Assembly: GCA_044892525.1 (NCBI GenBank)
Contig: JBJFYX010000106.1
Span: 62,001-126,000, forward strand
Reading direction: 5' to 3'
DNA: 64,000 nucleotides
Source of the DNA: Schmidtea polychroa
Lineage: Eukaryota
Shown here piece by piece: positions 44,747 through 64,000 of the stretch. A model generated the notes under the pieces. The model saw only the letters and a list, made by a program, of their open reading frames with translations, was not told where the DNA came from and searched no databases. Numbering within the stretch: position 1 is the stretch's first letter; every line of letters begins with the position of its first letter. A program made the translations under genes and the position numbers.

Positions 44747-44953
44747 TTTGTTATTCACAAACTAATGTTTATCGTGGCCTTATTATAGAATCTCTTATTC
44801 ACATTTTTTGAGTTGTTTCCATATTTATTGATAATATATTATTGCTTAAAGACCCAAGAAGAGGGGGGTCTTTTGACATTGGCCTCTTAATTTAGGGGCC
44901 CCAAACGATACTATTCCAAACGATCAAAAAGTGTATTTTGCAATTATAGGTAT

Positions 44954-47900
44954 TGTTGGCATATGAGGGAGAAGAAAACTTACACAACCATTATCATACC
45001 GACCGCATTGGTTAGCTCAGACACCTCCCATACATACGCCAAATGATCATTTACATATTCCCACGCATGAGCCCGTGGTGATGTTCCACGTTGGTAGTGC
45101 CCATACGGGTCGGAGCTGACTAACAGGTGAGCCCCTATCTTAGGACTACTGATAGCCCGCTCGCGGTTCAGGTTCACTGGTGCCTTAGAAGGACTTACCC
45201 TTATTCATGCTTCAGTCTTGGTTCGATCCTGGTCCAAGGGAACGACCGTTAGCCTACTCGCTTTCCTTCCACAACACTAAATTATTTATTCTCAAAACCA
45301 AACATATGAAAATCTTTATAAATCGGAACCAAATAGACAAAATATATTAATACCGAATTGAAAATAATAAAAACATCATTACACTTATTAATACAACATC
45401 ATACGGACGGTTAGGATGCACAATATTAACGAAGTCTATCAGTCAATTCACGACTCGAACTACATTCAGGGTCACTCGCGAACTGTTTTAGTTGAAGTTT
45501 TCTCCGTCGGCAATTAACTCGTCGATGTCTACCGGCAATCTACAATCCGAGATAAACTTGATGCCGTTAGCTGGAATGATACGGAAAACTTCTTTCGAGG
45601 GAATCGTATGAGTGGTGGATATCTCTGCTATTGTCGTCTGCGCTGCGAACAAAGAAGCCTCGAGCGCCTTCATTGCATTTCTTCGTTTCTTAGTCTTCTC
45701 GGCCCTAGTTGGGTGGTTGCGTTTGCGTGATGGCGGATTTCCTCCAACAGCAGTAGATACTGTGGGTGCCACTAGGATCGGGGCCAGAATTGGGTCAGAT
45801 GGACCGCCTTTCATAGGTAAGTATCCTGACAGCACTGGGGCTGGGATGGGCGGTAGATGTGAACCATGCCCTCGACAAGCTGTAGTGGGAGTTGTAGATG
45901 GCTGGTGATGGAGAGGAAAGACATTCGATCCATCCAATACGGGATATTCGCGTACCCGCTTTGCTATTTCTGCCTCCGTGTAGACCTTATGGAGGGCTTC
46001 TGATTGTGCTTTTATTGTGAGCCTTTGGCATCGGCTTTCTTCTAGTAGGCTGTCCCTACAATGTTCTAACCGGAGGATCTTAGCTTTTTCCTCCTTCATC
46101 TGTGGCGGGGAGAACCACGTTCCTTCATAAAGATCTATCCTCTTCTTGAGGGCCCCTATATATAAATGAAGTTGAGAGATGTCCGAGTTCTTGTCAGCGC
46201 AAGAGAAACACGGACGAAGCTCTTGGGCGTTATTGGATGGTGTTGTCATCTAGAAAATTAATCATGGTTCAAACCGAATTGCGATACTTATTAAGGTATC
46301 CGGTATAAGAATTCATTAGTTATAATTCTGTAATTTTTCACTAAGTGTCTTAATTCATAAATTTCATGCTTTTTAATATCTCAGCTAAGTTTTCTCTAGT
46401 AATCCGTTTTAACGGTGAAATATATCTAGTTCCAAATTCTACCGAGACACTAAACTCAAAGATTTCACTCATCATACCACGCCACAGCATACAATAAAAC
46501 AACTTGTTTTCACACAATTCAACACTCCTCATTCACTCATTTAGGAAACAACATTCCGATCGATTTATTGATTCAAGATGATGGAGAGAAGAAAACGGGG
46601 GAATCCTCGATTTTAACTTATTCGATGATAAATTTACCTTTATCCTCGGGTCGGATAACTCATACTCATTGCATTTTAGTCGGCTGCTATAGTCGAACAT
46701 ATTTACGCTCGTGATCAATAGAAAGGAATAGCATCCGATTGTTGGGGATTTCCGTTTATTAATTTGTACCTACTTCGTATTGCTAAATCGCATGAGAAAT
46801 TTATCTCTCCTTATGGTGCCTGGTTATTCCGAATTTACGGAAAGGACTTTAAATATATACTATTAGCTAATTATATTATAATTTAAATTTAAAAATTCTT
46901 TTTTAAAAATCGCGCTACTTCTGTCGCCTTAGTGACGCCTACTAGTAGAGGTGTGCATTTTTCTTATATTCATTAACTGAGTCGGTATGCATCGTTGGAG
47001 TAACTCCACCTCGTGCTTTCATGTGTGTCTATTTCTATGTGATGGTGGGGAAAATTCGACGTCGTGTTAAATCGCAGTGGAGACGATCCATGATGGAGTG
47101 TGTAGGTGTGTGCGGTTATATAATATATTGGAATTATCGCTGAGTGTTCTACGAGCATCACCATGGAATAGTGCGTAGTAATCCGATGAGCAACAACTAA
47201 GCTAGAATTTTTAATCTACCTCGATCATTACGCAGCCAGTACAAGACAAGGTCTACCCACGCGTCAATTAGATTATTCCTCGTGGAAATTTATTATCGGT
47301 ATTATCTGATTTCGTTGGTCGTTCAATTCGATCAGTTATCATCTGCCGGCAATTCATTTCTCAAGTCACTGATAACTCCTATCGTGGTTCCTCAATTCAG
47401 TCAGTGAGCAATTGATAAATCTGTCAGCGATTTCTGTCATTTTTCCGTGAGTAATCTGATAACCTCTCCTACTTATTTACATTCTTTTCAGGGAAGATGA
47501 TATTATCAGCGATTCGAAGCTAATCACTTAACTTAAAAATACATTCGTCGACGGGTGTCATCGCTAACATATCGACGGTTCAGATTCTACTAGTATACCG
47601 AGGAAAACCATACTCTACGGGACTTACTGGATTTACACTCCAAGCTTCGTCGACAACATTCTCGTTCACTATCCCGACTGACGGGTTGACCGTTATGAAG
47701 GAATTTCGCCGATCTATGTGGATTCTTAATACGTTGATGAAATTGTCAATCTCAACTCCGAACTGTCCTCGGTTCGCAACTTAAATCTCCTCCGCTATTA
47801 TCAGGTGTATCGATGTGACTTGTTGAAGCTATGGAACTTACTAAGAATGATGCGAGCTCGGTGAAGAAATTTCATCTTTCCGCCTGTTATCCTAACCTAC

Positions 47901-49194
47901 TGAGCCTCTACACCCCTCATAACACACCCAAGAAGGCAATCATCTCTGCCGCCATTCTCGGACGATCATGAGAGACCAGTCGACTCTTTCGCATTCAGCA
48001 ATTTAAAAGCAAATTTCAGATATAAATAATAAAAATGGAACAAATAATAATCAAGTAAATGAATCAAATTACCGGCGACCATATCGTCTGAGTTCCAAGT
48101 ATGATGCTTTCTCATTTTCCAACCCAATATTCCATTACAGTATTGGCATCGTATCCATTATTATCGCTTGCTCCTGATCCAATATCCTCGCAACATTTCT
48201 TGGCTACATATCATAAGACTCCTCGGGGCTACTTCCTCCATTTGGCATCATACTTGAAATCATCAGAAGGTACAGTCGTCGGCACCATGAAGAAAGGCAG
48301 GTTCTGTTTTTAAATAAATTTATTGAACAAATTTTCCTTGTTATTTACAAACTTTAATATCAATTATAAATAATTACTAAATTTCATCATATCTATCATA
48401 AAATTAAACCTAAAAAATATCCTACCATACCTTGAGATTAAATAACTGGGTTAAATCGGTTAAAGATTTCCTGAATAATACCGTTAATAGTTCGCTGTAT
48501 GTTTCTTCCTCAAATCAGATCAGTCTTCTTTGGATTAGTCCTCTGTAGTAGTTTGTGAATAAAATCTTGAAACCTGTAGAGTTGTTGGTTAAAGTGGTCG
48601 TGATAAGTTTTACAATTTTTACCTGTAGAGTTGTTGGTTAAAGTGGTACTCTACTGATTTTTAGCGTTTCTTATATACTATTTTCCGTCCAATCAGGACT
48701 TAGTTAGGTTGTAATTTTTAATATTTATTATTATTTTATGTTTTTATTATAATATATTAGCTTTTAATAACTTAACTTATTTCTTATTATTATTTTATTT
48801 ATTTTTCCTATTTTTCTTATTTTTCTCCTATTTTTTCTGCGGGTTCACTGCTACTTTATCATAATGCAATTTTTGTTTTAATTAAGCTTAAAGATATTTT
48901 TATTTTTTATTTATTGCTTTAATTTCTCGTTTATTTTCTCTTACCTTTTTGCTTATTCTATTTTTACTTTATTTATTGTGCTTTAACTCATTTCTCTTAT
49001 GTCCTATTTCTAATTCTTAAGGGCTTTATTTATTTATCATTTATTCTTATTTCTTTTTTATGGGTATTTTATTGTTTCCTTATTTATTATTGAGGTTTGA
49101 TGGGGATTTATTTTTATTATATTTCGTTTATATTTTTCGCGGCTCGTTTCCCGATTTAACCCAGTTTTTCTCTACTTCAAAACTTAGCCCAACA
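44954..49194 (-). repeat. Candidate 3' LTR, about 4.2 kb (TGTTGG...CCAACA)
   Basis: TGTTGGC at 44954 and GCCCAACA ending at 49194 give a 6-bp terminal inverted repeat. No clear PPT; the second LTR is outside the window. Confidence 0.35.
45488..46249 (-). CDS. Accessory ORF (253 aa): coiled coil, Pro-rich linker, basic NLS-like segment
   Basis: Uninterrupted ORF; ttttctag immediately before the ATG; RKRNHPTRAEKTKKRR; no recognisable domain. Confidence 0.6.
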   Translation of the reverse strand: MTTPSNNAQELRPCFSCADKNSDISQLHLYIGALKKRIDLYEGTWFSPPQMKEEKAKILRLEHCRDSLLEESRCQRLTIKAQSEALHKVYTEAEIAKRVREYPVLDGSNVFPLHHQPSTTPTTACRGHGSHLPPIPAPVLSGYLPMKGGPSDPILAPILVAPTVSTAVGGNPPSRKRNHPTRAEKTKKRRNAMKALEASLFAAQTTIAEISTTHTIPSKEVFRIIPANGIKFISDCRLPVDIDELIADGENFN

Positions 49195-49425: not shown

Positions 49426-50061
49426 TCACATGATCTTAAGGTTTGGAATGTTATTACTGTCTTGGTTGGTTGAATTCTGGGTCGGATGGCTGGTCGAAGT
49501 TGTTATCGTGGGGAGCTGTATTGTAACAGGTATTTGATCAGGAGATAGATTTTGTTGCATTTGGTCGGGTGGGTTTGGTTGTTGAAAGTGTACTGCTCGT
49601 TTATGCTTATTGTTTGGTCGTGGGTTCTTTCTTTCGGGTTTCTCGGATAGTGACTGGTTTCTTCTCCATGTCCGATAAATATCATACGCTTTCCAGATGA
49701 CTAGTGCGCAGATGATGATGGTTTCACTGATGGTAACATAGAGTAAGACTTGACTTTCTTTTGCTCCCTTCTTCATGATGATTTCCTTCAGGGATTGTTG
49801 GGTGGTTTGTTCTTGTAAGAGAATTTCGAGTTGTTCGATTTTTTGGGTTTGTAGATGGAGTTGCATTTGAAGTTTTTGCCAGACGGCTTTGTTCCAGCAT
49901 TGTTTCGGGATGTTGTTGGAGAGCTTTCTTTCGTTTTTCAGTTTGGTTAACGGGTTTTGCTGTTTCTCGGGATTCTCCCAGAGTGTTGGGATTGGCTGCC
50001 ACATGGGTGTTCCGTTTATCGCTATCATCATTATTGTCACCAGGGTTGCTCCGAACCACAT
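49426..50061 (-). CDS. Accessory type I membrane protein (211 aa)
   Basis: Signal-like MWFGATLVTIMMIAING, heptad Q/L ectodomain, TM VLLYVTISETIIICALVIW, basic stop-transfer segment, P/Q/T-rich tail. Confidence 0.75.
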   Translation of the reverse strand: MWFGATLVTIMMIAINGTPMWQPIPTLWENPEKQQNPLTKLKNERKLSNNIPKQCWNKAVWQKLQMQLHLQTQKIEQLEILLQEQTTQQSLKEIIMKKGAKESQVLLYVTISETIIICALVIWKAYDIYRTWRRNQSLSEKPERKNPRPNNKHKRAVHFQQPNPPDQMQQNLSPDQIPVTIQLPTITTSTSHPTQNSTNQDSNNIPNLKIM

Positions 50062-50116
50062 ACTACTATACGAAAATTTTTATTTACAATTATTTACATT
50101 GATCATTCATCTTTAA

Positions 50117-50818
50117 TTATTGCCGGGTTTTCTTTTTACGGGTTTTCTCGGATGTTCTCATCACTCTCGTTTCTGCTTTTATTACTCGTTTTCTCAATTC
50201 GGGTAGTACTTTTAATTGTTTGTCTCTTTCGTCTAACTGTTGCTTTAGGGTTATTATTTTTTCCTTTAGTGCTTTTATTTCTTGTGTTGCTCTTTCGAGG
50301 TTTTTATGGTTCATTATCTGTAGAAAATCATTTTCCCTTTCCCCGTCTTCTTCGTTGTCTATTTCTTGGTATTTGTTGTTCATTCTTTTCATTATTTCAC
50401 ATTCCTTTTGTTTCTGGTGTAGTTGGAGTTGTAACTCTTTCAGGCTTTCTTGGTGTTTCCGTGCCTCGGTTTTCCAATAATCACTAATCACTTCGTCGGC
50501 CTTTCTACTGGCCCTTTCCTGCCATAATTCTTCCGCGATCTTTTCCCAATTTCTCCCTCGCTTCCTTTGCTCGTGAAGCCATTCGTTTTCTTCCTCTACT
50601 TCTTTCTTTACTTCTTCTAACAGGGTGTATTCTCTTTTCAATACTTTAATCATTTTTCGATTATCTCTCCACCTTTCTACTAATCTTTCGTTTTCCTGTC
50701 TCTCCTCTTGTAATTCTTCCTTGATAGTTTTCTTCCTCTCCACTTCCTCAACTTCAATTTCTCCCTCTTCTAACTCGATTATAGATGTTATGATGGGTTG
50801 TCCGTTTTCAGTGTTCAT
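50117..50818 (-). CDS. Accessory coiled-coil protein (233 aa)
   Basis: Intact E/K/R-rich helical ORF. Confidence 0.75.
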   Translation of the reverse strand: MNTENGQPIITSIIELEEGEIEVEEVERKKTIKEELQEERQENERLVERWRDNRKMIKVLKREYTLLEEVKKEVEEENEWLHEQRKRGRNWEKIAEELWQERASRKADEVISDYWKTEARKHQESLKELQLQLHQKQKECEIMKRMNNKYQEIDNEEDGERENDFLQIMNHKNLERATQEIKALKEKIITLKQQLDERDKQLKVLPELRKRVIKAETRVMRTSEKTRKKKTRQ

Positions 50819-50991
50819 TTTCTATAATATATACATAATTAATAATTGCGCTACAGTGCGGCTTATACTTATACATTTATATGTTATTTTATAATCAGGG
50901 TTACAGTCCCTTTCATACTTTTACTGTACCATTAATTTTTTTGTTGGGATACAGGTCCCGATTTTTATATTTTTTATCTTTCCTTTCGTCT

Positions 50992-52029
50992 TTATACAAA
51001 GGTTTCTTCCTGGCCTACATATCCTTCATCGCTTTCTACTGACGTTTGTAATTGGAGTGCGATGGGATCAAATGGGATGTAGTACCGGGGAATCTGCGCT
51101 CTAAGTTCTTGGACTTCGTCTCTTAGCGCTCTTGACACGTTGAGTTCCTCGTCCAACAGGTAGGTTAAATACCTAGTTTCGTCATCCCGTACTTCTATCT
51201 GTTTTTCTAACTCTTCCGCCTTTTCGCCGTTCTCCCATTTTTTGATCTCCTTTTCGAGGTTCTTGATATTTTCATCATACATCTTCCTCTCGTTTTCTAA
51301 TTTCTTATTCTTACCGGCTAGCACTATGTTTCGTTGTTCTAGTGCCCCTTTGTAGCCGTTATTATCTCTCTCGAGGTCTGTCACCTTATTTACGAGTTCG
51401 ACGATTCTACCTGACTGTTGCAGGATCATCTCTTCCATGGCGGTATTCTCCTGTTCCTTTATAGACAGTTTCATGGCTAGATGCCTTTCAAATTCCATGG
51501 CCTTGGTCTGCCAGGTTTGACTTCGTGTTGCTATTTTCCTGAGCCTTCTTAGCTCTTCTCTCTGATCAAGGTTTTCCTCCCATTTCCCCTGCTCGGTTTC
51601 GTATTCTAATTTCTGAGGTAATTCCCTTATCTCCTTTTTAATTTCCCGATGTTGTCTTTTCCACTTTCTGGCTTCTGCCAAGAGTTGACGAGATTTCCTT
51701 TCCTCCTTTTGTTTTTCTATCTCTCGTTTTTTATTCTCGTCTGTCAGTCTTTTTCTCGATTCTTGTACTAGTTGCTTGAGGTAGTGACCGTGAGCTTCTT
51801 GTCGCGTATTTTCTAATGCTGCCCACTTGGCGGCTCTTTTACATGCCTCCGCCTCTGCTCGTAAGTTTTGCACCAACCACTGAAATTGGTGGTTTTCCCA
51901 TTCTCTTGCTTCTTCGAGGTAATTTCGTGTCTTATTTGATAATTGTGCCATTACTTTGGCCCATCTTTTTCGGTGTACTCCATTGATTTTTATTTCGTTG
52001 TTTGGGGCTTCTGTTTGTTCTTGTGTCAT
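50992..52029 (-). CDS. Accessory coiled-coil protein (345 aa)
   Basis: Intact E/K/R-rich helical ORF. Confidence 0.78.
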   Translation of the reverse strand: MTQEQTEAPNNEIKINGVHRKRWAKVMAQLSNKTRNYLEEAREWENHQFQWLVQNLRAEAEACKRAAKWAALENTRQEAHGHYLKQLVQESRKRLTDENKKREIEKQKEERKSRQLLAEARKWKRQHREIKKEIRELPQKLEYETEQGKWEENLDQREELRRLRKIATRSQTWQTKAMEFERHLAMKLSIKEQENTAMEEMILQQSGRIVELVNKVTDLERDNNGYKGALEQRNIVLAGKNKKLENERKMYDENIKNLEKEIKKWENGEKAEELEKQIEVRDDETRYLTYLLDEELNVSRALRDEVQELRAQIPRYYIPFDPIALQLQTSVESDEGYVGQEETFV

Positions 52030-52248
52030 CTTATCTGAATAACGAGATTATCAACTCAACGTCTCACATTTATATTTGTTCTATTATTTATTTATTGTTA
52101 CGAATATAGGTGGGTTGGGATTTTTTCTAGGTTTTCCGCTTAAATTTACCTTTAGTAGATTTGGGGTTTTTCTACACTATTATATAATATTTTACTGGAT
52201 ATATACGCCGATATTTACAATTTATTATATACAAAATTATTCATCTCA

Positions 52249-53637
52249 CTATTCAGTCCTACTCTTCCCATCTCGCCTCACCGCTATTTTTATGTATATA
52301 GTGTCGTTTCTCGTCATATCCTCCACTTTCCGCTGTAGGATAAAATTCGGTGCTCCGGTTGCTGGTCCTTCTTCTTCCAATGGCCTTTGATAACATACAA
52401 GGTTTCCTGCTGTATGGAAACTCTGCTCATGTGTACTTAGATAGTTCATCATTGCGAGGTCTATTTTTGCTTTGAACGGCCATTCTATTAACTCATCGTA
52501 TGGCCCTTTGCATATCAAGAAGAATATTGAGAAATGTGTTCCGTGCGCGCTTCCGTCCCCGTTGGGATATGCTTTCATTTTCATCTTATATCCGTTTTTC
52601 CATGAGTAGAAGGCTGGACTTAGTAATGTCGTGTCCTTTCCATTTCTCGCTCTCTGCATTTTCTCCTTTACTTCCGTTATTTTCCATATGTATGGAGCCG
52701 TTGGTATCAATTCATTGAGGTTCATTTCGCTTACTTTTTGATGTAGTTCTTTCACCATTTTGTTGCTAGTTTCTACTAGATCTGTTTGTATCTTTGTACT
52801 TAGTCTTGCCTCTTCGAATGCTTCTTTCTCTTGCAATAATTCTTTTACCAACGTTTTCAGCGAGGTTATTTCCTTTTCTAGGTTTTCGGTTTTCTTTTCG
52901 TTTTCTTGTAGTACCGTTGACCATATTTCTGCGTGTGTTGATACGTTCTCTGCTAGATGTTGGGGTAGTTCTCCTCGGTGTAATTGTTTCTGACATCCCC
53001 ATTTTCCTAACACACACATTATCTTTTTCCTTTCGCATTCTTTCAGATGTTGAGCGAGTTTTATTACTCCGGGTTTATCGCATTTGTTGGGACATTCTCC
53101 TCTGAATTCTGCGCACACTTTTTCCTCTTGTACGTTATGATGTTGACTCGTTAGTTTTCTCCAGGTGTCGGTTTCTCCGCAATATTCGCATCTTTCTAGC
53201 CTTTCCTTGCACCGACTTTGATGTTCTGTTTCTTCACTGGCTTTAATCTCTTCTTGGCAACGTTCGCAGTGACTGACTTTATGCTCACACTTCTCCATGT
53301 GTTGCCTCACCTCCCATATCACTCCTCGCCAATTGCATGGGGTGTTTTTACATCCTAGATTTGTATTCAACATATCTTTTACAGCTGCTTTATCTTCGTT
53401 TGTATCTCCCAAATTTGTTATCATTGTTTCTTTACATACTGGGCACCATTGTGGTCCCTTCTTTATTATTTCTTCTACACATTCTTTACACATTCTACAT
53501 CCGCATCTGGTTTGGTGAGGTTCTCTTAATAATCCCTTGCATATTCCACACTTCACATGGTCATGTATTCGAATTGTGGTGGATTTTCTGACTTGTTCGA
53601 CAATCTCCTTGAATTCTTCTCTTTGTCGCTTATCCAT
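52249..53637 (-). CDS. Full-length intronless TRAF-family protein (RING, TRAF zinc fingers, coiled coil, MATH)
   Basis: CGICKGLLREPHQTRCGCRMCKECV...CPVC RING; zinc fingers such as CPNKC...HLKEC; MATH motifs YIWKI, SPAFY, GYKMKMKAYPNGDG, GTHFSIFF, LIEWPF, DTIYIKI. Confidence 0.95.
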   Translation of the reverse strand: MDKRQREEFKEIVEQVRKSTTIRIHDHVKCGICKGLLREPHQTRCGCRMCKECVEEIIKKGPQWCPVCKETMITNLGDTNEDKAAVKDMLNTNLGCKNTPCNWRGVIWEVRQHMEKCEHKVSHCERCQEEIKASEETEHQSRCKERLERCEYCGETDTWRKLTSQHHNVQEEKVCAEFRGECPNKCDKPGVIKLAQHLKECERKKIMCVLGKWGCQKQLHRGELPQHLAENVSTHAEIWSTVLQENEKKTENLEKEITSLKTLVKELLQEKEAFEEARLSTKIQTDLVETSNKMVKELHQKVSEMNLNELIPTAPYIWKITEVKEKMQRARNGKDTTLLSPAFYSWKNGYKMKMKAYPNGDGSAHGTHFSIFFLICKGPYDELIEWPFKAKIDLAMMNYLSTHEQSFHTAGNLVCYQRPLEEEGPATGAPNFILQRKVEDMTRNDTIYIKIAVRRDGKSRTE

Positions 53638-53722
53638 TTCTATAATTATATATACATATATTCGTTACTGGTACAATTTCGTATTTTTATTTACAGTTAT
53701 TTACATTTGTTTTAGGTTATAT

Positions 53723-54082
53723 TTATTGACTGGAAGAGTCGGCCTCTTGTCCGCCCTCTTCCCTACTGGTTAACCATTCTGACCAGTCTTCTATCTCCTC
53801 TCTTTCCATTTCTTCAGCGATTCTCATTAATTCTTCTTCCTGTCCCTGGCTGTATCGCGATATTCGCACTATTTCCTGCTGCATTTGTTCTATCTTTATT
53901 CGCTGATCTTCGATTATTCTCACATAACTGAAACCTTTATTTAGACTTTCGACTAAGCTTCTTTGTGCAGCGAGTCCTTGTTCCTGTAAATTCGAAATCA
54001 CTTGGGTTAACATTGCACATTGCTGTTTCCACATCTCTTCGGTTGTCGTACTGTGGTTTACTTCATCGTTTATTCGCTCCAT
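53723..54082 (-). CDS. Accessory small coiled-coil protein (119 aa) with acidic Trp-containing tail
   Basis: Intact ORF with heptad pattern; EIEDWSEWL tail. Confidence 0.65.
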   Translation of the reverse strand: MERINDEVNHSTTTEEMWKQQCAMLTQVISNLQEQGLAAQRSLVESLNKGFSYVRIIEDQRIKIEQMQQEIVRISRYSQGQEEELMRIAEEMEREEIEDWSEWLTSREEGGQEADSSSQ

Positions 54083-54249
54083 TCTTAATTATATACACTT
54101 TTCAACCCTTATCTCATTTTAGTTTTATATTAATTGTCCCCATCATTATATAATATTGATACCGCGCTTATATAGAGATATAGAATACTGTTATATAAAT
54201 ACATATAATGTACTTACTTTTTACAATCTATATACAGTCATAATCCTTT

Positions 54250-55680
54250 CTATATTTGTGAGTTTGGAGGACGCTGAGCGTTCCAGGCCTCCACCCACTG
54301 TTCCTGTTTGATATTACTTGGTCTCTTTACCTGATGTTGAAAGTTTCTGATTCTGGCCATCTCCAGTTCTCCGCGATGCCGTCTATCTTTGATTATTTTT
54401 ATGGTTCCCCCCATTATGATTAAAAATGCCCCTGCTATTATTATGCCGCTGATCCACATCATCTGTTTCACGCTTATGATTTCCGCTTTTTCCTTGTTCG
54501 TTATTGTTGGTATTGCCTCTGTGCTTTTTAGATTATCATCTTTGTCATTTCCTTTTATCATTCCTCGTATTCTTGCTATTTCTTCGTTCATGCCTTCCTT
54601 TGCCATTTTTTGTATTTTCTCCATCTCTTCTTCTGACACGTAATTATCTTGATATTTCTCACTGGTTTTCTTGCGTTTTCCTTGCTCATCCTTTTCATCA
54701 TTGATTTTTCTTTTCTTCCCTCTTTTCCCAGGGTATCGTCGACATTCTCTCGCTGTATCGTTTCTCCAGATGCATACTGTGTATTCTTTTGGAGGTTGTT
54801 GCTGTGTTACATATTGTAGACAGTCTTCACCCGGTCCTAATCTTGAAATGCAGACTTTGTGTTCTTTTCTTGGCTGGAGTTGCGTTATCACTACCTCACC
54901 TCCTTTTTTCAGGTGTACCTCCTTCCCTTTGACTTTAGTTATTCTCTTCCCGTCTCGATTCCGGTATGCTTCTTGTATTCTTACTTCCGTTATCGGTTCT
55001 GTATCTTCATTTATTAATACTAGTCTCCGATATGCTCTCGACATACATCTTCCTAGTATGCACCTTTCTTTTAGATCCCATTCTTCTTTTAAATCCCATT
55101 GTTGCTCTCGTACTTGCTTCTTCTTTTCTTGCTTTAGTTCCTCCTCCTTGTTATCTTTGTTTTCCGTTTCCTTGGCTTCTTTTATCGTTCTCATTCCTCC
55201 GTGAGCTGTTATCATTTCTACCATTGTTAGTATGAGTATCATTACCATCATATTTGTCTCCATTTCCTTGTTGGTAAAAAGTAGGCATACCCTCTGTTTT
55301 CCATTATTCGTCTTTTCCTCTTCCTTTGTTCGGTTTCCCGGGTTATTTTCCTCTTTTCTCATACTCGCGTCGTTATTTTCTTGCTTATTCTCCTCTGATT
55401 TCTCTTTCCCGTTTTGACCTGTTTCGTCATTATCGTCGTCTTTATAGTCTTTATCTCCCCCGCTGTCGTTTGAAATGTCGTCCTCGACATTTATGTCGTT
55501 CAATAATCTGCGATATGCTGTTAACACTCTATTTCTTGCTAATTTCGCTTCGAATTCGAACTCCTTTCTGCCTGTTGCTGCATGTCTCTTTCTGTTCCAT
55601 TCTTTTACTAATTCTCTTAATTGTATTCGACGATTTTTCCGATTCGCTTTTGTTCGTTTTGATTTTGCGTGAATTTGAGG
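54250..55680 (-). CDS. C-terminal segment of the polyprotein: acidic linker, internal signal peptide, FN3-like ectodomain, TM, short tail
   Basis: Frame is open from about 55740 and joins the ankyrin frame by a 1-nt shift near 55672. MMVMILILTMVEMITA signal; VVITQLQPRKEHKVCIS FN3-like strands; MMWISGIIIAGAFLIIMGGTI TM. Confidence 0.72.
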   Translation of the reverse strand, partial: PQIHAKSKRTKANRKNRRIQLRELVKEWNRKRHAATGRKEFEFEAKLARNRVLTAYRRLLNDINVEDDISNDSGGDKDYKDDDNDETGQNGKEKSEENKQENNDASMRKEENNPGNRTKEEEKTNNGKQRVCLLFTNKEMETNMMVMILILTMVEMITAHGGMRTIKEAKETENKDNKEEELKQEKKKQVREQQWDLKEEWDLKERCILGRCMSRAYRRLVLINEDTEPITEVRIQEAYRNRDGKRITKVKGKEVHLKKGGEVVITQLQPRKEHKVCISRLGPGEDCLQYVTQQQPPKEYTVCIWRNDTARECRRYPGKRGKKRKINDEKDEQGKRKKTSEKYQDNYVSEEEMEKIQKMAKEGMNEEIARIRGMIKGNDKDDNLKSTEAIPTITNKEKAEIISVKQMMWISGIIIAGAFLIIMGGTIKIIKDRRHRGELEMARIRNFQHQVKRPSNIKQEQWVEAWNAQRPPNSQI

Positions 55681-58600
55681 TCTTCTCTGTTCAATACGAT
55701 CATTATGATTTTCGGAGTTCCTCCTTTTGTCAGCGTATTTTTAACCATGGCATTTTCCCCGTTTTCATAGAACTCATTTATGTTTATTGCATATGTATTA
55801 CTTTGTGGTATTTTCCAGGTTAACAATAACTTCATGGCTTCTAAGCTCTTCCGTATCGTGTTCCATTGGAATTGTGACGTGTTTTTGCAGATATTTTCTA
55901 CCTCAGTTCTTGTAGCATTTTTACAAATGAATCTAATCCTTTCCAGGTTTGGTTGTATTGTTGCCCAATCCATGGTAGAATTTCCCTCGTTTGATTTCTC
56001 GTCAAGTCTCTAACCTGATTGATGTAGTATGTGTAAGGTTTTCGGGTGTATATTTGTTATTGCTGCATACATCATTGCTGTTTCTCCTTGTTCATTTTTT
56101 GCATTAGATTCTTCTCCGAAGTCTCTAAGAATTCTTATGATGGTTATTGCTCTGTTTTCTTTTGCTGCTAATATTGCTTGTTGTAATGGTGTTCTTGAAT
56201 CTTTCGTCGGTAAGGTGAATGCTAGTGGTATGAATGTTTTCATTTTTCCTATGTCTAGATTTGTGGTCTGATCTCTTGCGTAGGTGTGTACTGTTTTTGT
56301 TATTTTTGCTAGTATCGCCTCATCGGATAGATCTTGCATTTCTTCAAAGAATACTTCTTTAGCCTTACGTACTACTATCTCTTGGTCGGAGTTTATTGTC
56401 TTTGGTTTACTTGTTGTTGCTATATCGGTTATTATTTGATCGGTTTGTTTCTCAGACTCTCTTGCTGTTATTTTCTTGATTTTTATCCTTTTCTTGTTCG
56501 AACTGTTAATGCGTTCTTCCGCTGTAAGCACTTGAATAATACTTAGGTAGTTTTCTCGGATGTTGTTCATAGTTTCCATCATATATAATACGTTCACAGT
56601 TTCCCAATATTTTACTTGTACTTTATCGGTAAATTGAGATATGGCTTTTTCGAAGTTTGTAATTCGTTTTCTGATTAGTTGTTCGTCTTTGTGATTTGAA
56701 AACTTTATGCCACGTTGTAGTAGTTGATTTGGAATTTCGAATAGGTGATGTCCTCTCATCGCTTCTCTCATCAAGGTGTTTTCTCCTTTGGTAAATGTTT
56801 CGTTTATATCTACCATATAATCGTTTTTGATCGGGTTCCTCCATGCAATTAGTAATCCAGTAATTGTTATTAATTTCTCTTTGATCGCCGTTAATAGCCC
56901 GTCATACATGTTTCCTATCTCCCTATTATCCTCGTACGATAATAGATCTACTAAGATTATGAAGGCTTCCGTACTTTTCCCTTCGATTGCATGATGTAGT
57001 GCATTTTTCCGGTTGTGATCTTGTGTGGTTATCTTTGACCCAGTTTCAAGTAATGCGATAATAATATCTTTAGCTTTATCCCGATTGGCTGCTATCATTA
57101 GTGGGGTGTAACCTTGGTTATTTTCTTGATCCGTTGAAACGTTACAATCGCGAAATGCTTCAATTGTCTCTAGTATTTGTTCATTATTACCAACCTTTAA
57201 AAGTTTGTGTAGTGGTGTATCTCCGTAATGGTCTGTGATCGTGAATAATATGGGCCATTGACTTTTAACTACCCTGAGCAATGGGTGTGTTCTTTCTCGG
57301 TTTGCATAGTTTTCTATCATGGTTAGCAGACCTCCCAATATCTCAAAATCCAATTTATCTTTAGCCCATCCGGGTATTTTAGCTTTTACTTCTTTTATGA
57401 TTTTCTCGGCTTCTGATGGTTGTAGCCCCGATCGATTACCCGTTGGTTTGTTTATCTGCTGTAACATATTGATTCTATACGTTTGTGATCTGGTTGTTAA
57501 TGTTCGCCCTTCTGGCTGATTGGTGGCGGTTTTCGGAATTGGCTTACATCGTGCAACATTTACGTATATTGGTCTTGTAAAAGGGTTGTTCACTAATCGT
57601 ACTCTTACATTAGTTTCTCCGACAAATAAAATCTCATACGGCCCTTTACCGTTTCGTTGTAATTTTTTGGTGGTTCCTGGAATTAATTCTGGTGTTTCGA
57701 TCATCACCCAATCGCCTGTTTGAAACGTATGCTGTTTGACGTTTTTCTTTCTATCATGTAAATCTTTGTAACTTTCTTGATAAAATTTTATATTCAATCC
57801 TGCAGTTTCCCAGATTTCCTGCATTCTTTCCTTGAACTTGGTTACATAATCGTCTATTTCCATGTATTGTGATATTGGTGGCTGATATTCTAAGTCCATT
57901 GGCATATTACATTCTCTACCATACATCAATTTGAATGGACTCATCTTTGTGGACGCGTGAATCGACATTCTGTAAGCCATTAAACATAATTTTATATACT
58001 CGTCCCAGTCGCGTTGATGACGATCGACATAATTTGATAACATTTGAATCAAGGTTCCGTTGAATCTTTCTGTCATACCATTTGTTTGTGGGTGGTACGG
58101 TGATGTTCTTAATTTTGCAATCTTGAAGTAATTGGTTACTTCGCTCATTATTTCACTCATGAAATTTGTTCTCTGATCAGTTAATATCTGTTTTGGTGTT
58201 CCATATCGACAGCATATCTCCTCTACCAGTATTTTCGCGATTGTTTTTGCTTTCTGGTCTGCCATAGCGAATGCTTCAGGGAATTTTGTCAAATAATCTG
58301 TGATTACCAATATATATATATTTCCTCTATCGGATTCTGGTAGTGGACCGACTACGTCCATAGATATCATTGTCATTGGTTCTGCCGGTACTGGCATTGG
58401 CTTTAACGGTGCTTTCCATTTCGTTCCCGTGTTTTTTCTGGTCGCGCAAGTTATACAGTTCTTTACCCATTCCGTTACATCCTCAATCAATGTAGGCCAA
58501 AAATACTTTTGTTTCATTCGGGCTAACGTCTTCTTCGATGACATATGTCCTCCGAGTCTTCCGTCATGATATTGCGTTAGCAAATCTTTACGTCTATTTT

Positions 58601-58790
58601 CTGGAATGCACATCAGTCTCTTTTCCCCATCCATTATCAATAACCAATCTTTCTCGATAATATATCGATGTCGATGTTTATCCATGTGTTCTTTCAGTTT
58701 TTGATCTTTCTCGTATACCTCTGCTTTTCCAGTTTTTACATATTCGATAATTTGTTTCAACTCGGCATCATCTTGCTGGTCTTTTCGTAA
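55617..58790 (-). pseudogene. Integrase fused to ankyrin repeats; in frame with pol across TAA 58791-58793, with an internal TAG at 56010-56012
   Basis: HHCC (YHDGRLGGH...CITC), SMDVVGP, LTDQ, GMTERFN, GPY. Ankyrin motifs GDTPLH, GYTPLMIAA, KNALHHA, RTPLQQA, GETAMMYAA, G*RLDEKSNEGNSTMDWA. Confidence 0.92.
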
Positions 58791-61700
58791 TTAGCAAAAA
58801 TCTAAATCTTCCGCTACCATTAGACATATCCGTTGCATTTCATGATCTACTAAATCTGGAAAGATAAACCTTGACATACAATCCGCATTGGCATTCGCTC
58901 TTCCTGCTTTGAATTTTATGAACGGTGAATATTCTTGCAACTGCATTGCCCATCGCATCAATCTACTTGAAGCTTCTTTGTGCTGTCCGAGCCATACTAA
59001 TGGTTGGTGATCTGTTGTGATACATATTTCGTGTCCCCATAACAAATATCGAAAATGTTTTATCGCTTGTATTATAGCTAACGCTTCTCTTTCTGTTACT
59101 GAATAGTTTTTCTCATGCTTTTTAAACGTTCTGCTGTAATAGCCGATTACTCTCTCCTTTCCTTCTTCATCGAGTTGTCCTAATATTGCTCCGGCTGCAT
59201 ATCCACTTGCATCGGTTGCTAACAAGAACGGTTTCTTGAAATCAGGATGTACTAGTATTGGGGCTTCAATTAATTTATCTCGCAATGTTTCAAAGGCTTT
59301 TTGCTGTTCTGCTCCCCAGATAAATGAAATGTCTTTTTTCACTAATTCCTGGATTGGTTTCGCAATACTTGCATAATTTTTAATGAATTTCCGATAATAT
59401 CCGCATAATCCGAGGAATTCTTGAACTTGGGTGACAGTTTTCGGTGCTGGACAGGTTTTTATTTTTTCTATATTTCTTGGATCTGGTTCTTTGCCTTTTG
59501 CTGACACTATGTGTCCTAAGAACGTAACTTTTTCTTTTGCCCAATCACATTTGGATGGTTTAAGCTTCAATTTCCATTGTCGTAATCGGATGAACACGTT
59601 TCTAATGTCTTCCAAATGTTGTTCGAAAGTTGCTGAATATATTAATAAATCATCAATATATACCATACATTGCTTGATCCCGTGTGTGACGAAATTCATG
59701 CATCTCTGAAATGATGCTGGGGCATTGGTCAGTCCAAATGGCATTTTCCTGAATTGATATAGATCTCGGCCCAATGTGAATGCTGTTTTCTCTTTGTCTT
59801 CCTCCTTGACTTTGATCTGCCAATATCCGCTCTTTAGATCTAAAGACGTAAAATATGCGGCCCCCTGTAGCATAAGTAACATCTCATTGATGTCTGGTAA
59901 TGGGTATGTGTCTCTTTTTGTTACTGCATTTAATTTCCGATAATCGATACAGAATCTCTGAGTACCGTCTTTTTTCTTTACCATGACTACTGGAAATTGC
60001 CATGGCGAACAACTTGGTTCGATCACTTGTGCATCTAGCATTTTTTGTACTTCTGCTTCGGCTATCTCTTTTTGCTTCTCTGCTAGTTTGTATGGTCGTA
60101 ACGCAATTGGAGTTTCGTCTATTAATGGTATTGCGTGTAATGTGACATCGCATGCTCCCAAATCTAAATCCGAAATTGCGAATATATCTTTATATTCTAT
60201 TAGTAATTGTTGAAGTCTTTCCTTTTCTCTTTCCGTTAGCAAGGTGCTATCAATTATCCATAATTCGTCAGCTTTCGTTGTTTCGTTGGTGATTTTTGGT
60301 AATTCAATGTCTATCATGGGTGTCAATCTACCCAATCTTTCATTTTCATATATGATCTTGTCTTCCTCCTCGAAATTTGTGATGTTAATTGGTATTTCCC
60401 CTTCTTCATTTATTGTTATTATTTCTCTTGCTAATGGTAATTCTCGTCGTTTTTCGAATGATTTGCTTGGCTCGAAAATGGCTTCTCCTTCCATTCCTGC
60501 ATCCACTTTTATTTGACATATCATCTGTGATTTTGCTGGCACAATTATTTTCTCCGGACATCTAATTATTGCGTTCATCTTGCATATTCTACCCATTTTA
60601 TCTTTTAGACACATTGTTGTTAAATCGATTACTACTTCCTTGAACAATTCCGGCATTAAATCCGTTCCGATTATACATGGTTCGCTCAGTTTGGGTATCA
60701 CCGCTAGATACGTTTCAATTTCATTATCTTGATATCGTAACGTAGTCCACCATCTTCCTACTACGTCTACGGTTTCTTTACTGCATGCAATAATATGGAT
60801 AGTTGTTTGTTCGATATCTTTCCAACATTTAGTGGGTATTTGGTTTATTGCTATTGCTGATACGTTTGCTCCGGTATCTATCATTGCGCTTGTCTCTTTC
60901 CCATTGATTTGGATCATGACTGTTACTGCCGCGCCTCCTGGTGAACTCATTACTGCTATTGTTCTGACGTCATCAGCTTGGTCTACGCTTTTCGTTCTTC
61001 GGATTGGCATATAGTTCATTCCTGGTTGACTTGGTAACTGTGGATACATATTTTGTGTCATGGTCAAAGCTGTTTGTTGTCCAACGATATCTGGTGGTAT
61101 ATAACTTCCGTTGGCTATCCAGGTATTTGTTTTTTCTTTCTCCCAATATGGCGCTGTTTCTATTGGCTTTTCATTCGGGTTTCTACTTGGGTATGGATAT
61201 TTGTCATTCCCATTGTCGTCATCATCACTATCGCTGCTGTTTGATCGATTTCTAAATCTGTCTAAGAATTTTGGTTTGTTCTTCTTTAATTGCGCTCTCG
61301 TTGCTTCATCATACATCGTTTTCCGAAATCGTCTGCCAACTTCCTCGTCAGTCCCTTTTATTTTTGTCAGTATTTTGATTAATCGTTTTATTCTGTGTAT
61401 GTCTTTGGAATGACCGTGCAACACCATTGTTTTTGCCAAAAATGGTAGAAAACCTACTATCAATTTCCAATTCACTTTCTTTTCTCGCTTGTATATATCG
61501 AAGCATGCCAACATTTGGGTCAATATTACCCTGACGATCTGAATAATTAAGATGATTCCCAATATTCCTGCCATCATTTGACCGAACACTAGAAATCTTC
61601 CCCACATTGCTTTCATCATGTTTGACGTGGCTTGTTGAAAATGATCCGGTGATAATAATAGTTCATAGTTGGGACTTGATTGGAAATTCGTTCCCCCAGT

Positions 61701-62789
61701 TATGGTAACCATATTTGATAAAATGGATTCCCGTCTTGCTGGGAATAATACGTTTAATCGTGCCGTTTCTAAATCCTCTGGTGAGTACATACCGGCCTTT
61801 GACACATCAATTGGTTTGAAATCCTGTTCTGTTGCAAGCTCTATTAATCCAAACTTTTTAGGTTCTTGCACTTCAACTTTTAACGGTAACATTATCCATT
61901 TCCCATCGGGTTTTTCATATAATGGCCCGTATGCATTTGAACAGTTAAAGGTGTTCGGATAAAATCCAATTGGGTTCATAATTCTGGTGACGGGTTGAAC
62001 GAATCTGTTCCGCCCTTTGTAACTAATTTCTAATTCGTTTGCACATTTCCCTGGTGGAATTGTGGGTTTTCTTGGCAGTCGTGCAAATGTCTTGGTACAT
62101 GCATATGTATACATTACCTCTCCCACCATTCTACCAAAATGTCCATCCGGTAACGGGAGTGATGTCATTGTGTTATCTGGGTGTGTTATTGCGATGGCTA
62201 ATTTTGTTTTTAGTATTTCTTTATTCAATGAACAGTCATTTTGTATAAGATCGTAATATACTTTTTGCATTGTCGTTTGTCCTCGATGGAATAGGAAGTC
62301 CATCTTGTTATTGGCATACAAGTACAATTTTACGTCTTCCGTTGCTACCTTTTCCACTGCTCTGTCTATTACTTGCCTTGACATGTAGATACCTGCGTAG
62401 TTCGTCCGGTATACTATACTGTCACATTTGGTAGTCTCTTTTTCTCTGATGAATTTCATACCGATATCTGGATCATCTGTAATTAATGCCGTTGGTGTTT
62501 TTTGTGTTGTGAGTCTCTTTTCTTTGGGGGATGGTGGGACTGGTTTCCCATTTCGCATCCTTACGTTTCCATTCTCTTCGTCGTCATCTTCGTTTTCATA
62601 AATTTCTCCTTTTACTTCATTGAACAAAGCACTTTTTAACAACTGGAGTCGGCATTTTTGGGTGTTGGCTTCATATATTATAGTCGAAATTCCCGTTCTA
62701 CACACGTTTTCCGTAGCTCTGCATGCTGGGTTGGTTTTCATTTGATAATTATTTGCGTCGAATTGCGCTTCGTATTCCTTCAAATCCAC
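58791..62789 (-). CDS. Polyprotein segment: glycoprotein C-half and TM, aspartic protease, RT, RNase H
   Basis: TM WGRFLVFGQMMAGILGIILIIQIV (about 61500-61605); MIDTGANVSAI (about 60875); FCIDYRKLN, MPFGLTNAP, YIDD (about 59655); LATDAS, EREAL, TDHQPL, NADCMS. Confidence 0.95.
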   Translation of the reverse strand: MDLKEYEAQFDANNYQMKTNPACRATENVCRTGISTIIYEANTQKCRLQLLKSALFNEVKGEIYENEDDDEENGNVRMRNGKPVPPSPKEKRLTTQKTPTALITDDPDIGMKFIREKETTKCDSIVYRTNYAGIYMSRQVIDRAVEKVATEDVKLYLYANNKMDFLFHRGQTTMQKVYYDLIQNDCSLNKEILKTKLAIAITHPDNTMTSLPLPDGHFGRMVGEVMYTYACTKTFARLPRKPTIPPGKCANELEISYKGRNRFVQPVTRIMNPIGFYPNTFNCSNAYGPLYEKPDGKWIMLPLKVEVQEPKKFGLIELATEQDFKPIDVSKAGMYSPEDLETARLNVLFPARRESILSNMVTITGGTNFQSSPNYELLLSPDHFQQATSNMMKAMWGRFLVFGQMMAGILGIILIIQIVRVILTQMLACFDIYKREKKVNWKLIVGFLPFLAKTMVLHGHSKDIHRIKRLIKILTKIKGTDEEVGRRFRKTMYDEATRAQLKKNKPKFLDRFRNRSNSSDSDDDDNGNDKYPYPSRNPNEKPIETAPYWEKEKTNTWIANGSYIPPDIVGQQTALTMTQNMYPQLPSQPGMNYMPIRRTKSVDQADDVRTIAVMSSPGGAAVTVMIQINGKETSAMIDTGANVSAIAINQIPTKCWKDIEQTTIHIIACSKETVDVVGRWWTTLRYQDNEIETYLAVIPKLSEPCIIGTDLMPELFKEVVIDLTTMCLKDKMGRICKMNAIIRCPEKIIVPAKSQMICQIKVDAGMEGEAIFEPSKSFEKRRELPLAREIITINEEGEIPINITNFEEEDKIIYENERLGRLTPMIDIELPKITNETTKADELWIIDSTLLTEREKERLQQLLIEYKDIFAISDLDLGACDVTLHAIPLIDETPIALRPYKLAEKQKEIAEAEVQKMLDAQVIEPSCSPWQFPVVMVKKKDGTQRFCIDYRKLNAVTKRDTYPLPDINEMLLMLQGAAYFTSLDLKSGYWQIKVKEEDKEKTAFTLGRDLYQFRKMPFGLTNAPASFQRCMNFVTHGIKQCMVYIDDLLIYSATFEQHLEDIRNVFIRLRQWKLKLKPSKCDWAKEKVTFLGHIVSAKGKEPDPRNIEKIKTCPAPKTVTQVQEFLGLCGYYRKFIKNYASIAKPIQELVKKDISFIWGAEQQKAFETLRDKLIEAPILVHPDFKKPFLLATDASGYAAGAILGQLDEEGKERVIGYYSRTFKKHEKNYSVTEREALAIIQAIKHFRYLLWGHEICITTDHQPLVWLGQHKEASSRLMRWAMQLQEYSPFIKFKAGRANANADCMSRFIFPDLVDHEMQRICLMVAEDLDFC

Positions 62790-64000
62790 TGGATATTACC
62801 TCCCCTCTGATCGTATATGTGCCTCCGTTACAGGATCCATCGGTCGATTTTACCCGTCCGGCTACATAGATGCTTTCGGTCTTAATCATCCCGCTTTGTC
62901 CGTGTATTGTTACTCCATCCCGGATTCTCATTGCTCCGGTTCTAAAAAGCTCTTTGCAGTCTTCCCGTTGTATAGGTACTATTTCTTTATCTAATCCGGG
63001 TAGTATGAGAGTTGAATAAGAATATTGTCCACAATAATATGCCAACACTTTCTTTGATACTACGCATTCTCTAGCTTGTGTTCGAATAAAATCTGATTCT
63101 TGATATACGTGATAGGAGACTTTCTTCTTTACTATATCTAATTTATTCGGAGATGCTTGTCTGCATTCCTCTATATCTCTCAGGGAGTATTTTTCTCTTA
63201 ATACCGAATTGTCACAGTCGTAGATTGTAAATCCAGCTGCTCCGCTGGTACAGAGCATCCATATCATCATGGTCATCATTAGTGAATTAATCGACGCTTT
63301 TCTGCTGGCTGGGTCCTTTAATGGCAATTCCCATTCTAGCTCGTTTAATAATTTTTTCAACCGAATTTGCATTGATCTCTCTTGCTCGTTTTTCCGTGGT
63401 GCTTGTATGAGTCTTTTCCATCCACCGGCGCGGATAATATGTGGTTCGATTGTAGTTTCAATGATTGTAACTGTCATTTCTACATGATTTGCGAATTGTT
63501 TGTTAGGTATTTTTCTTGCTGCTAATCCCATCAAATTGTACATTAGATACGTTAACACTACTAAATGATGTTCGTCGTCGTTTGCGTTTAAAGTTAATTG
63601 TTCAATTACTCTTCTTGTCTCTTCCCAATCGGTTTTAGTGGTTTTTGTCTTCTCTTTGATTAATTTCGGAATTATTCCGGATATTGTATTCCATAGCTGT
63701 CTGGCATCTACGCTTGCTACTTTTCGTTGCCATAACCGTCTCAATTGCGGGTTCGTTATTATTAACATATCCTTTACTAGCTCTCGTATCCATTTTTCAC
63801 CTCTCTCGATTGTTGGTTGGGCTTCTTTTAGGTCCCATACTATTTTATCCAGTTTCTCTAATCTGACTTGTCCTTGTTCTTGTTTTAGTTGTTCTCTAGT
63901 TTTAAATTCTGGTTTTTCTCCTTGTTTCTTGGGTCTTCCTTTTGCCCGTTTCTCCATCATTGTTCCAGCTTCTCTTGTCTTTTCGTAATTCGGGTTTCTC
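62749..64000 (-). CDS. Polyprotein segment: Bcl-2-like domain, internal signal peptide, N-half of a gB/chuvirus-like glycoprotein. Open past the window edge; shifts into the 58791-62789 frame near 62790
   Basis: Frame is open to 63999 (RNPNYEKTREAGT-MMEK). HIIRAGGWKRL is BH2-like. LMMTMMIWMLCTSGAAG/FTIYDCD signal and cleavage site; Cys pattern YYCG...DGSCNGGTY. Confidence 0.85.
   Translation of the reverse strand, partial: RNPNYEKTREAGTMMEKRAKGRPKKQGEKPEFKTREQLKQEQGQVRLEKLDKIVWDLKEAQPTIERGEKWIRELVKDMLIITNPQLRRLWQRKVASVDARQLWNTISGIIPKLIKEKTKTTKTDWEETRRVIEQLTLNANDDEHHLVVLTYLMYNLMGLAARKIPNKQFANHVEMTVTIIETTIEPHIIRAGGWKRLIQAPRKNEQERSMQIRLKKLLNELEWELPLKDPASRKASINSLMMTMMIWMLCTSGAAGFTIYDCDNSVLREKYSLRDIEECRQASPNKLDIVKKKVSYHVYQESDFIRTQARECVVSKKVLAYYCGQYSYSTLILPGLDKEIVPIQREDCKELFRTGAMRIRDGVTIHGQSGMIKTESIYVAGRVKSTDGSCNGGTYTIRGEVISSGFEGIRSAIRRK

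Follow-up and report, generated by a model that had tools for sequence, protein, structure and literature searches.

Analysis of a 64,000-nucleotide stretch of the Schmidtea polychroa genome, here called the window, revealed a complete TRAF gene carried by a giant LTR retrotransposon and maintained by purifying selection in its replicating lineages. The TRAF ORF occupies positions 52249..53637 on the minus strand, runs from ATG to TAG and encodes 462 aa with no internal stops; the plus strand of the same interval contains many stops. The ORF is located between the integrase-ankyrin region and the 3' LTR of a 30,652-bp (30.65-kb) planarian element of the Burro type, which belongs to Ty3/gypsy and carries env. 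The LTRs of this element are 4241 bp long with TG..CA ends and are 99.9% alike (4 mismatches), and the 5' partner is positioned at G000:C106:133365-137605. The element runs past the window, and gag with its CCHC motifs, an upstream RING ORF and the 5' LTR are found there. The following features were assigned within the window.

44950..44953, minus strand: target site duplication of 4 bp, ATAC in element sense, present on both sides (flank comparison)
44954..49194, minus strand: 3' LTR, 4241 bp, TG..CA, 4 mismatches to the 5' LTR
45488..46249, minus strand: 253-aa ORF inside the LTR, without a Pfam match, with homologs in other Burro-type LTRs
49426..50079, minus strand: accessory ORF, 217-aa frame with two hydrophobic stretches (ORF list)
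50117..50821, minus strand: accessory ORF, 234-aa frame, charged and coiled-coil-like (ORF list)
50992..52047, minus strand: accessory ORF, 351-aa frame, coiled-coil-like; it follows TRAF on the downstream side in both subfamilies (A and B) and has a homolog in family C (locus comparison)
52249..53637, minus strand: full-length TRAF accessory ORF (RING 30-68, zinc fingers 96-235, coiled coil 232-304, MATH/TRAF-C 316-453)
53638..53665, minus strand: AT-rich spacer with a splice-acceptor-like TAG two bases ahead of the TRAF ATG (sequence)
53723..54088, minus strand: accessory ORF, 121-aa frame, upstream of TRAF in three lineages (A, B and C; locus comparison)
54250..55740, minus strand: 496-aa frame with hydrophobic segments, without a clear Pfam family (Pfam)
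56010..58790, minus strand: integrase (H2C2 and rve), then ankyrin repeats (Pfam)
58791..62795, minus strand: C-terminal part of an env-like fusion glycoprotein, protease, reverse transcriptase and RNase H (Pfam)
62749..64000, minus strand: weak Bcl-2-like segment and N-terminal part of env (Pfam Bcl-2 E 0.039, below cut-off)

In sense orientation, the element is arranged as upstream RING ORF, gag with CCHC knuckles, Bcl-2-like segment, env, protease (PR), reverse transcriptase (RT), RNase H (RH), integrase (IN), ankyrin repeats and accessory ORFs including TRAF. Comparison with published descriptions, as opposed to family models, revealed the features of a Burro-type element: a size above 30 kb, long paired LTRs, the order gag-CCHC/env/PR-RT-RH-IN, and ankyrin and MATH/TRAF cargo. 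Burro/GYPSM1 elements are giant gypsy-like planarian LTR retrotransposons (Jurka 2007, Grohme 2018, summarised in PMC6431247), and the summary gives them the same traits, namely, >30 kb, LTRs, gag CCHC knuckles, env between gag and pol, a BCL2-like motif before env, ankyrin repeats, RING and MATH_TRAF cargo, and accessory ORFs. The BCL2-like trait is weak here: the segment has a Pfam E value of 0.039, below the cut-off, at the place expected for the Burro motif, and a PDB sequence search with it gave zero matches. The window copy has a polyprotein interrupted by stops and a frameshift, and a TRAF that is whole. The TRAF ORF lies within an A-rich block of higher GC content that begins near 45 kb of the window. 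The upstream accessory ORF (L031:7427-7921, minus strand) encodes an IAP-type RING without a BIR and is also found in family C (33% over 100 aa). Homologs of the 253-aa LTR ORF with 35-44% identity occur in the LTRs of other element families (L097, L107, L132). Just past the 5' LTR, the sequence at L031:8340-8364 (minus strand) may represent a tRNA-Pro-type primer binding site, offset by several bases. The window contig (C106) duplicates G000:C1:168364500-168400500 in the stretches compared, flanks included, with polyprotein breaks that partly differ, and is probably a redundant copy of the C1 locus. The element at G000:C1:168.37-168.40 Mb was therefore rejected as an identical second copy, because identical flanks indicate one insertion assembled twice.

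The predicted protein carries all hallmarks of the TRAF family, i.e., RING, TRAF-type zinc fingers, coiled coil and MATH/TRAF-C. Pfam analysis identified a RING at residues 30-68 (E 1.4e-4) and a MATH domain at residues 316-453 (E 4e-25), and ligand spacing in the region 96-235 indicates four CCHC zinc fingers and a probable fifth. In a PDB sequence search, residues 1-166 aligned with RING and zinc-finger structures of TRAF6/5/2 and the C terminus aligned with TRAF3/2. An AlphaFold model generated from a 14-sequence alignment (mean pLDDT 78.5, pTM 0.36, low confidence at 301-313 and 408-426) contains a 73-residue helix (232-304) and a beta-sandwich, and its top Foldseek matches were TRAF2/TRAF3 domains. 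Translation, Pfam, PDB alignment and AlphaFold/Foldseek thus agree with the initial annotation, which had described an intact RING-ZnF-coiled-coil-MATH ORF of 462 aa, and the strand is minus. The RING is of the C4C4 type, with Cys at all eight ligand positions (C30, 33, 45, 47, 50, 53, 65 and 68), and includes the motif CGCRMC (aa 45-50).

To determine how widespread the gene is, the genome was searched at the DNA level; 40 of 361 candidates were scored, and all of these were full length (91-100%). Exact probes matched 125 times for subfamily A and 114 times for subfamily B, with 0 matches for reversed controls; these counts are lower bounds and include duplicated contigs. The TRAF proteins of the two subfamilies are 70% identical. 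Among the best-scoring subfamily A loci, element flanks were present in 30/30 and an intact ORF in 26/30. Twenty further A matches, hand-picked across three chromosomes, all lay in element DNA; four were truncated or interrupted, and the ORF was intact in 9 of the 20. Element context was accordingly found at 50/50 inspected subfamily A loci. In subfamily B, the same neighbors flank TRAF in 18/18 loci, and pol was found upstream in the one locus that was extended. One locus (L119) that resembled a TRAF freed from its element was rejected because another element is inserted in its 5' end. As a separate observation, ten probe matches lie within 0.64 Mb at G000:C1:152.86-153.50 Mb; the two that were fetched are truncated at one and the same TRAF point, which suggests local segmental amplification of a broken copy.

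The mean dN/dS of subfamily A was ~0.12 (Nei-Gojobori, 378 pairs from 28 indel-free copies of the 30 fetched; the pairs are not independent, and the signal is uniform), and a value of 0.13 was obtained within subfamily B (16 copies). Subfamilies A and B differ to saturation at silent sites (pS 0.71-0.76), with a pN of ~0.15. The pN/pS values within subfamily A were 0.13 for the RING, 0.15 for the fingers, 0.18 for the coil and 0.11 for MATH, the most constrained part, and the zinc ligands of RING and fingers are conserved in 44-45 of 45 copies. This uniform purifying signal indicates that the TRAF protein is functional for the replicating element. The 16 closest subfamily A pairs showed a dN/dS of 0.34, as expected if drift after insertion dominates among them; together with the 9/20 intact ORFs among spread copies, this value indicates that selection acts on the replicating lineage and not on each inserted copy. 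The initial annotation had proposed a host-derived TRAF on a retroelement and had considered the alternatives that the ORF is missing from other copies and evolves neutrally, or that it is a host gene with conserved synteny. Its proposal is borne out by the LTRs, the other copies and the selection on them. A host gene invaded by elements, or a neutral passenger, is extremely improbable: paired LTRs and a target duplication bound the TRAF element, the listed probe matches are distributed over chromosomes 1-3 (A) and 1-4 (B), hundreds of copies exist in element context, and dN/dS is 0.12. Nothing was found in favor of this reading, and it was rejected.

A distant, Burro1-like lineage, family C, was detected in a MATH profile search of the genome. 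In this search, 150 of 1484 candidates were scored and comprised 27 host loci and 123 matches in very long frames, mostly of 4791 aa, of which three were inspected and the others assigned by frame length. Family C gave 172 probe matches. In the one copy examined, a 4791-aa polyprotein with MATH and a BIR+RING ORF form the Burro1 layout, and a complete TRAF (P0169) is located between a homolog of the 121-aa ORF and the IAP gene, again in the one copy inspected for TRAF. The two distinguishing Burro1 features, MATH in the ORF1 polyprotein and a BIR/IAP gene, are thus present in family C and absent from the window family: neither a BIR protein nor a polyprotein MATH was found in the ORFs scanned in the TRAF-bearing window element. 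P0169 shares 33% identity with the window TRAF (P0001) over 437 columns, whereas the env-pol regions of family C and the window element are 67% identical. Two observations concern family C itself. The full-length TRAF adjoins the BIR+RING IAP ORF at L106:3031-5810, an arrangement that recalls the vertebrate TRAF2-cIAP module. The second, noted at L105:1520-1981, is that TRAF-derived sequence occurs twice in the family, once as the MATH of the polyprotein, whose groove is host-like, and once as the stand-alone TRAF, whose groove has changed.

The TRAF phylogeny that the initial annotation had called for placed the element TRAFs in one clade (99/98), with no host TRAF inside it, within a triclad clade (100/100) set against six non-triclad rows in a tree of 27 rows. 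Long branches and A-rich composition could help to group the element TRAFs; their common origin is independently supported by the shared gene position. A MATH-only tree that joined the polyprotein MATH with the element TRAFs (support 89, two long branches) was not relied on, since it came from a quick search only. The 27-row tree and the shared gene position make likely a single, ancient capture from the flatworm's own TRAF family before the element families split, and the direction of transfer would have been from host to element. No database protein above 39% identity to the element TRAF was found. The codons of the element TRAF match those of the element pol and not those of host TRAFs (third-position A 0.48 and T 0.14, compared with A 0.31-0.38 and T 0.30-0.44 in host TRAFs). 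With identities of at most 39% and an element-like base composition, the capture does not appear recent.

Two features that the initial annotation had emphasized do not have the meaning given to them. The replacement of the RING His by Cys is not peculiar to the element, because Cys is present in 28/28 RING matches from host TRAF loci of the S. polychroa genome (27 of 32 host-locus records gave a match, including four repeat fetches) and in TRAF-2, -4 and -5 of Dendrocoelum; His was found in 77 of 111 database proteins with the RING motif. A Cys at this position can still bind zinc. The His-to-Cys change marks the origin of the gene and not an adaptation. The lack of introns, which had been read as a sign of mRNA capture, does not demonstrate such capture, since the six host TRAFs closest to the element TRAF (26-32% identity) likewise encode RING to MATH in a single open frame without introns. 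No intron-bearing parent was identified, the nearest host genes being likewise intron-free in the coding region. Capture through RNA nevertheless is the likely route for a retroelement.

The intron-poor structure of the host genes raises the reverse possibility that triclad host TRAFs descend, wholly or partly, from an element-borne TRAF. Among the host triclad TRAFs inspected, the number of coding introns is zero or one, the RING is of the Cys type and the length is similar, and AU tests rejected none of three placements of the element clade among triclad TRAFs (p 0.15-0.22), including that with the two-exon host clade (p 0.15). This direction is very unlikely, however, because the element clade contains no host TRAF, hosts are nearer to the outgroup at the groove motifs, and the accessory cassette of the element is absent around five host TRAF loci over ~20 kb or more, where only scattered fragments of unrelated insertions were found. 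The host cluster of two-exon TRAFs on C2 forms a clade of its own. With respect to the suggestion that such elements feed the apparent TRAF expansion of planarians, at least 239 TRAF loci and 172 polyprotein MATH loci are element-borne at the DNA level, and the suggestion holds for genome-level domain counts only; it does not hold for the host paralogs inspected, which lie outside elements in their own clades. A true expansion of host TRAFs therefore exists. For S. mediterranea, a transcript-based count of 121 MATH domains is given in PMC6109357.

Putative expression signals were analyzed by a rule of our own that scores a sequence pattern only, an acceptor-like AG after a T-rich tract ahead of an ATG. 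Such a site precedes six of seven accessory ATGs in the window element and five of seven in family C; the same rule was satisfied at 34 of 461 ATGs in the element and at 7 of 29 in AT-rich spacers, some of which are shared with the accessory set. None of the 47 loci viewed has lost the AG ahead of the TRAF ATG (present in 30/30 of subfamily A and in 17/17 further loci), and an acceptor-like site also directly precedes the ATG of the 253-aa LTR ORF (45488-46249, minus strand). Contigs of seven sequencing runs, whose kind was guessed to be RNA or is unknown, cover the TRAF ORF wholly or partly. Among the joints listed, these contigs contain no splice joint or leader at the TRAF start, which is no evidence either way. 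Run X1 has no cover over the LTR region 46259-47563, between donor-like sites at ~47628-47842 and an acceptor-like site at 46250, and no contig joining across this region was among those listed. The site pattern suggests that TRAF may be made from a spliced subgenomic RNA in which a 5' leader is joined to the acceptor before the ATG.

Receptor binding by TRAF proteins depends on three hot spots: a hydrophobic pocket, a serine triad and an Arg/Tyr polar pocket (PMC6125299). Alignments revealed that the hydrophobic pocket of TRAF2 is mostly retained in the element TRAF (equivalents of F410, F447 and Y395 conserved, F456 replaced by Tyr and C469 by Ala), and that the serine triad is L-V-C and R393 is Lys. 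The element TRAF therefore lacks the full set of three hot spots of the TRAF1/2/3/5 receptor-binding type. Vertebrate TRAF2/3/5 are its best PDB sequence and fold matches for coiled coil and MATH, but differ in the RING His and in the serine triad. Host triclad TRAFs (Dendrocoelum TRAF-2/4/5, Dugesia japonica TRAF2-like A, Smed-TRAF-1/2 and -2A/B) resemble the element TRAF in length (450-490 aa), Cys-type RING, finger spacing and sequence (26-33% identity). They keep the serine triad itself only in part, yet retain flanking motifs that the element copies have changed; the element TRAF further differs from them in A-rich, T-poor codons and in being multicopy and mobile. Because these groove motifs are changed, the partners of the element TRAF likely differ from those of host TRAFs.

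We favor, with slightly better than even confidence, the interpretation that TRAF is a selected 3' accessory gene, captured once in the distant past and expressed from spliced RNA, whose product is an active adaptor that shifts host TRAF signaling toward survival. From its architecture, the protein would form trimers through the coiled coil and MATH. The C4C4 RING would bind zinc and could act by itself or in RING dimers with host TRAFs, the changed peptide groove would give other partners, and host TRAF signaling would in this way be tuned toward survival of the element-expressing cell. Cell survival in planarians requires host TRAFs (PMC7586133), the Burro1 IAP is reported to protect stem cells (PMC13465017), the weak Bcl-2-like segment of the window element fits the same context, and TRAF RINGs can heterodimerize functionally even without E2 binding (PMC5702613). 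The TRAF-IAP pairing of family C is missing from the TRAF-bearing window family, which has no BIR, and this counts against the favored interpretation.

The groove changes can also be read as those of a dominant-negative decoy that joins host TRAF trimers or RING dimers without binding receptors and damps innate immune or death signaling directed against the element; the L-V-C triad and the Lys at R393 would fit a decoy and an adaptor equally well. Consistent with a decoy, every element TRAF in the alignment shows changes in the serine triad, in the Pro-Asp that precedes it and in the Asn-x-Ala-Ser motif, whereas these motifs are better preserved in the polyprotein MATH of family C and in most host TRAFs. 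In addition, the linker Arg of TRAF6/5 is Lys in the element TRAF. This Lys is common to host triclad TRAFs, however, and a pure decoy need not keep MATH as the most constrained domain (pN/pS 0.11) or all RING and finger ligands; we consider a decoy unlikely. Less likely again is a ubiquitin adaptor of the element cycle, without a TNFR/TLR role, that removes a restriction factor (e.g., of the PIWI pathway) or aids particle assembly or release. Selection among copies reflects a replication benefit by whatever route, and the long branch, the changed groove and the presence of ankyrin repeats, a second RING ORF and env in the element would suit such a function; retention of the whole TRAF architecture with almost no indels relative to host TRAFs does not, and the companion cargo (IAP, Bcl-2-like) indicates death pathways. 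The active pro-survival adaptor is therefore preferred over the decoy, the element-cycle adaptor, the reverse flow and the passenger.

The element TRAF extends a cargo already partly described for Burro elements. MATH_TRAF cargo of Burro was published in 2007/2019, and it has been proposed to interfere with apoptosis and ubiquitination (PMC6431247). According to that source, MATH_TRAF_C is located in the ORF1 polyprotein in S. mediterranea or in an upstream accessory ORF in D. tigrina, whereas the window element has a complete RING-to-MATH TRAF as a separate ORF downstream of the integrase. The literature searched, with Grohme 2018, Lee et al. 2026 and their supplements lying outside the search, contained no description of a complete TRAF ORF on the 3' side, of selection on it or of its common ancestry; Lee et al. 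2026 may already depict the TRAF ORF. The B-IAP of Burro1 (Lee et al. 2026, Dev Cell; via PMC13465017) is likewise a host-derived death-pathway regulator on a Burro element. By that account, its function has been demonstrated, whereas the function of the element TRAF is a predicted one.

Maintenance of TRAF at a dN/dS of ~0.1 across silent-saturated lineages suggests that a retrotransposon uses host signaling machinery, as large viruses do. After B-IAP, the element TRAF is the obvious second candidate for a mutualism between an element and its regenerating host, and RNAi offers a test of this idea. A broader reading, which we regard as speculative and improbable, is that Burro-type elements are endogenous flatworm viruses that express a complete host-derived survival kit (TRAF, IAP, Bcl-2-like and RING) from spliced accessory RNAs. 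TRAF would be the oldest shared member of this kit and, like B-IAP, a part of host stress and immune signaling, and an early element TRAF may have seeded the intron-poor planarian expansion. Hundreds of element TRAF/MATH copies can also raise TRAF counts artificially and mislead analyses of genes, piRNA targets and RNAi off-targets in planarians. Targets of SMEDWI-3 piRNAs are described as enriched for TRAF zinc-finger, ankyrin and E3 domains (PMC6824462). This domain set, as given there, is the set carried by Burro elements (compare window positions 52249-58790), and some SMEDWI-3 targets may be element ORFs annotated as genes.

Analysis of the surroundings revealed that a gene for a ubiquitin carboxyl-terminal hydrolase (Pfam UCH, E 8e-23) has its final exon at window positions 44264-44746 on the plus strand. 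The element is inserted ~200 bp past the stop codon of this gene in the opposite orientation. A second UCH-like frame is located at 11410-11979 (minus strand), an integrase fragment of another gypsy-type element at 8708-10027 (minus strand), and an AT-rich tandem array of 31-bp, palindromic units at 26774-27575. At the other end of the element, a hAT-type transposase frame (L032:3810-6152, plus strand) is positioned next to the 5' LTR and is followed by a long AT-rich satellite that extends to at least C106:165000.
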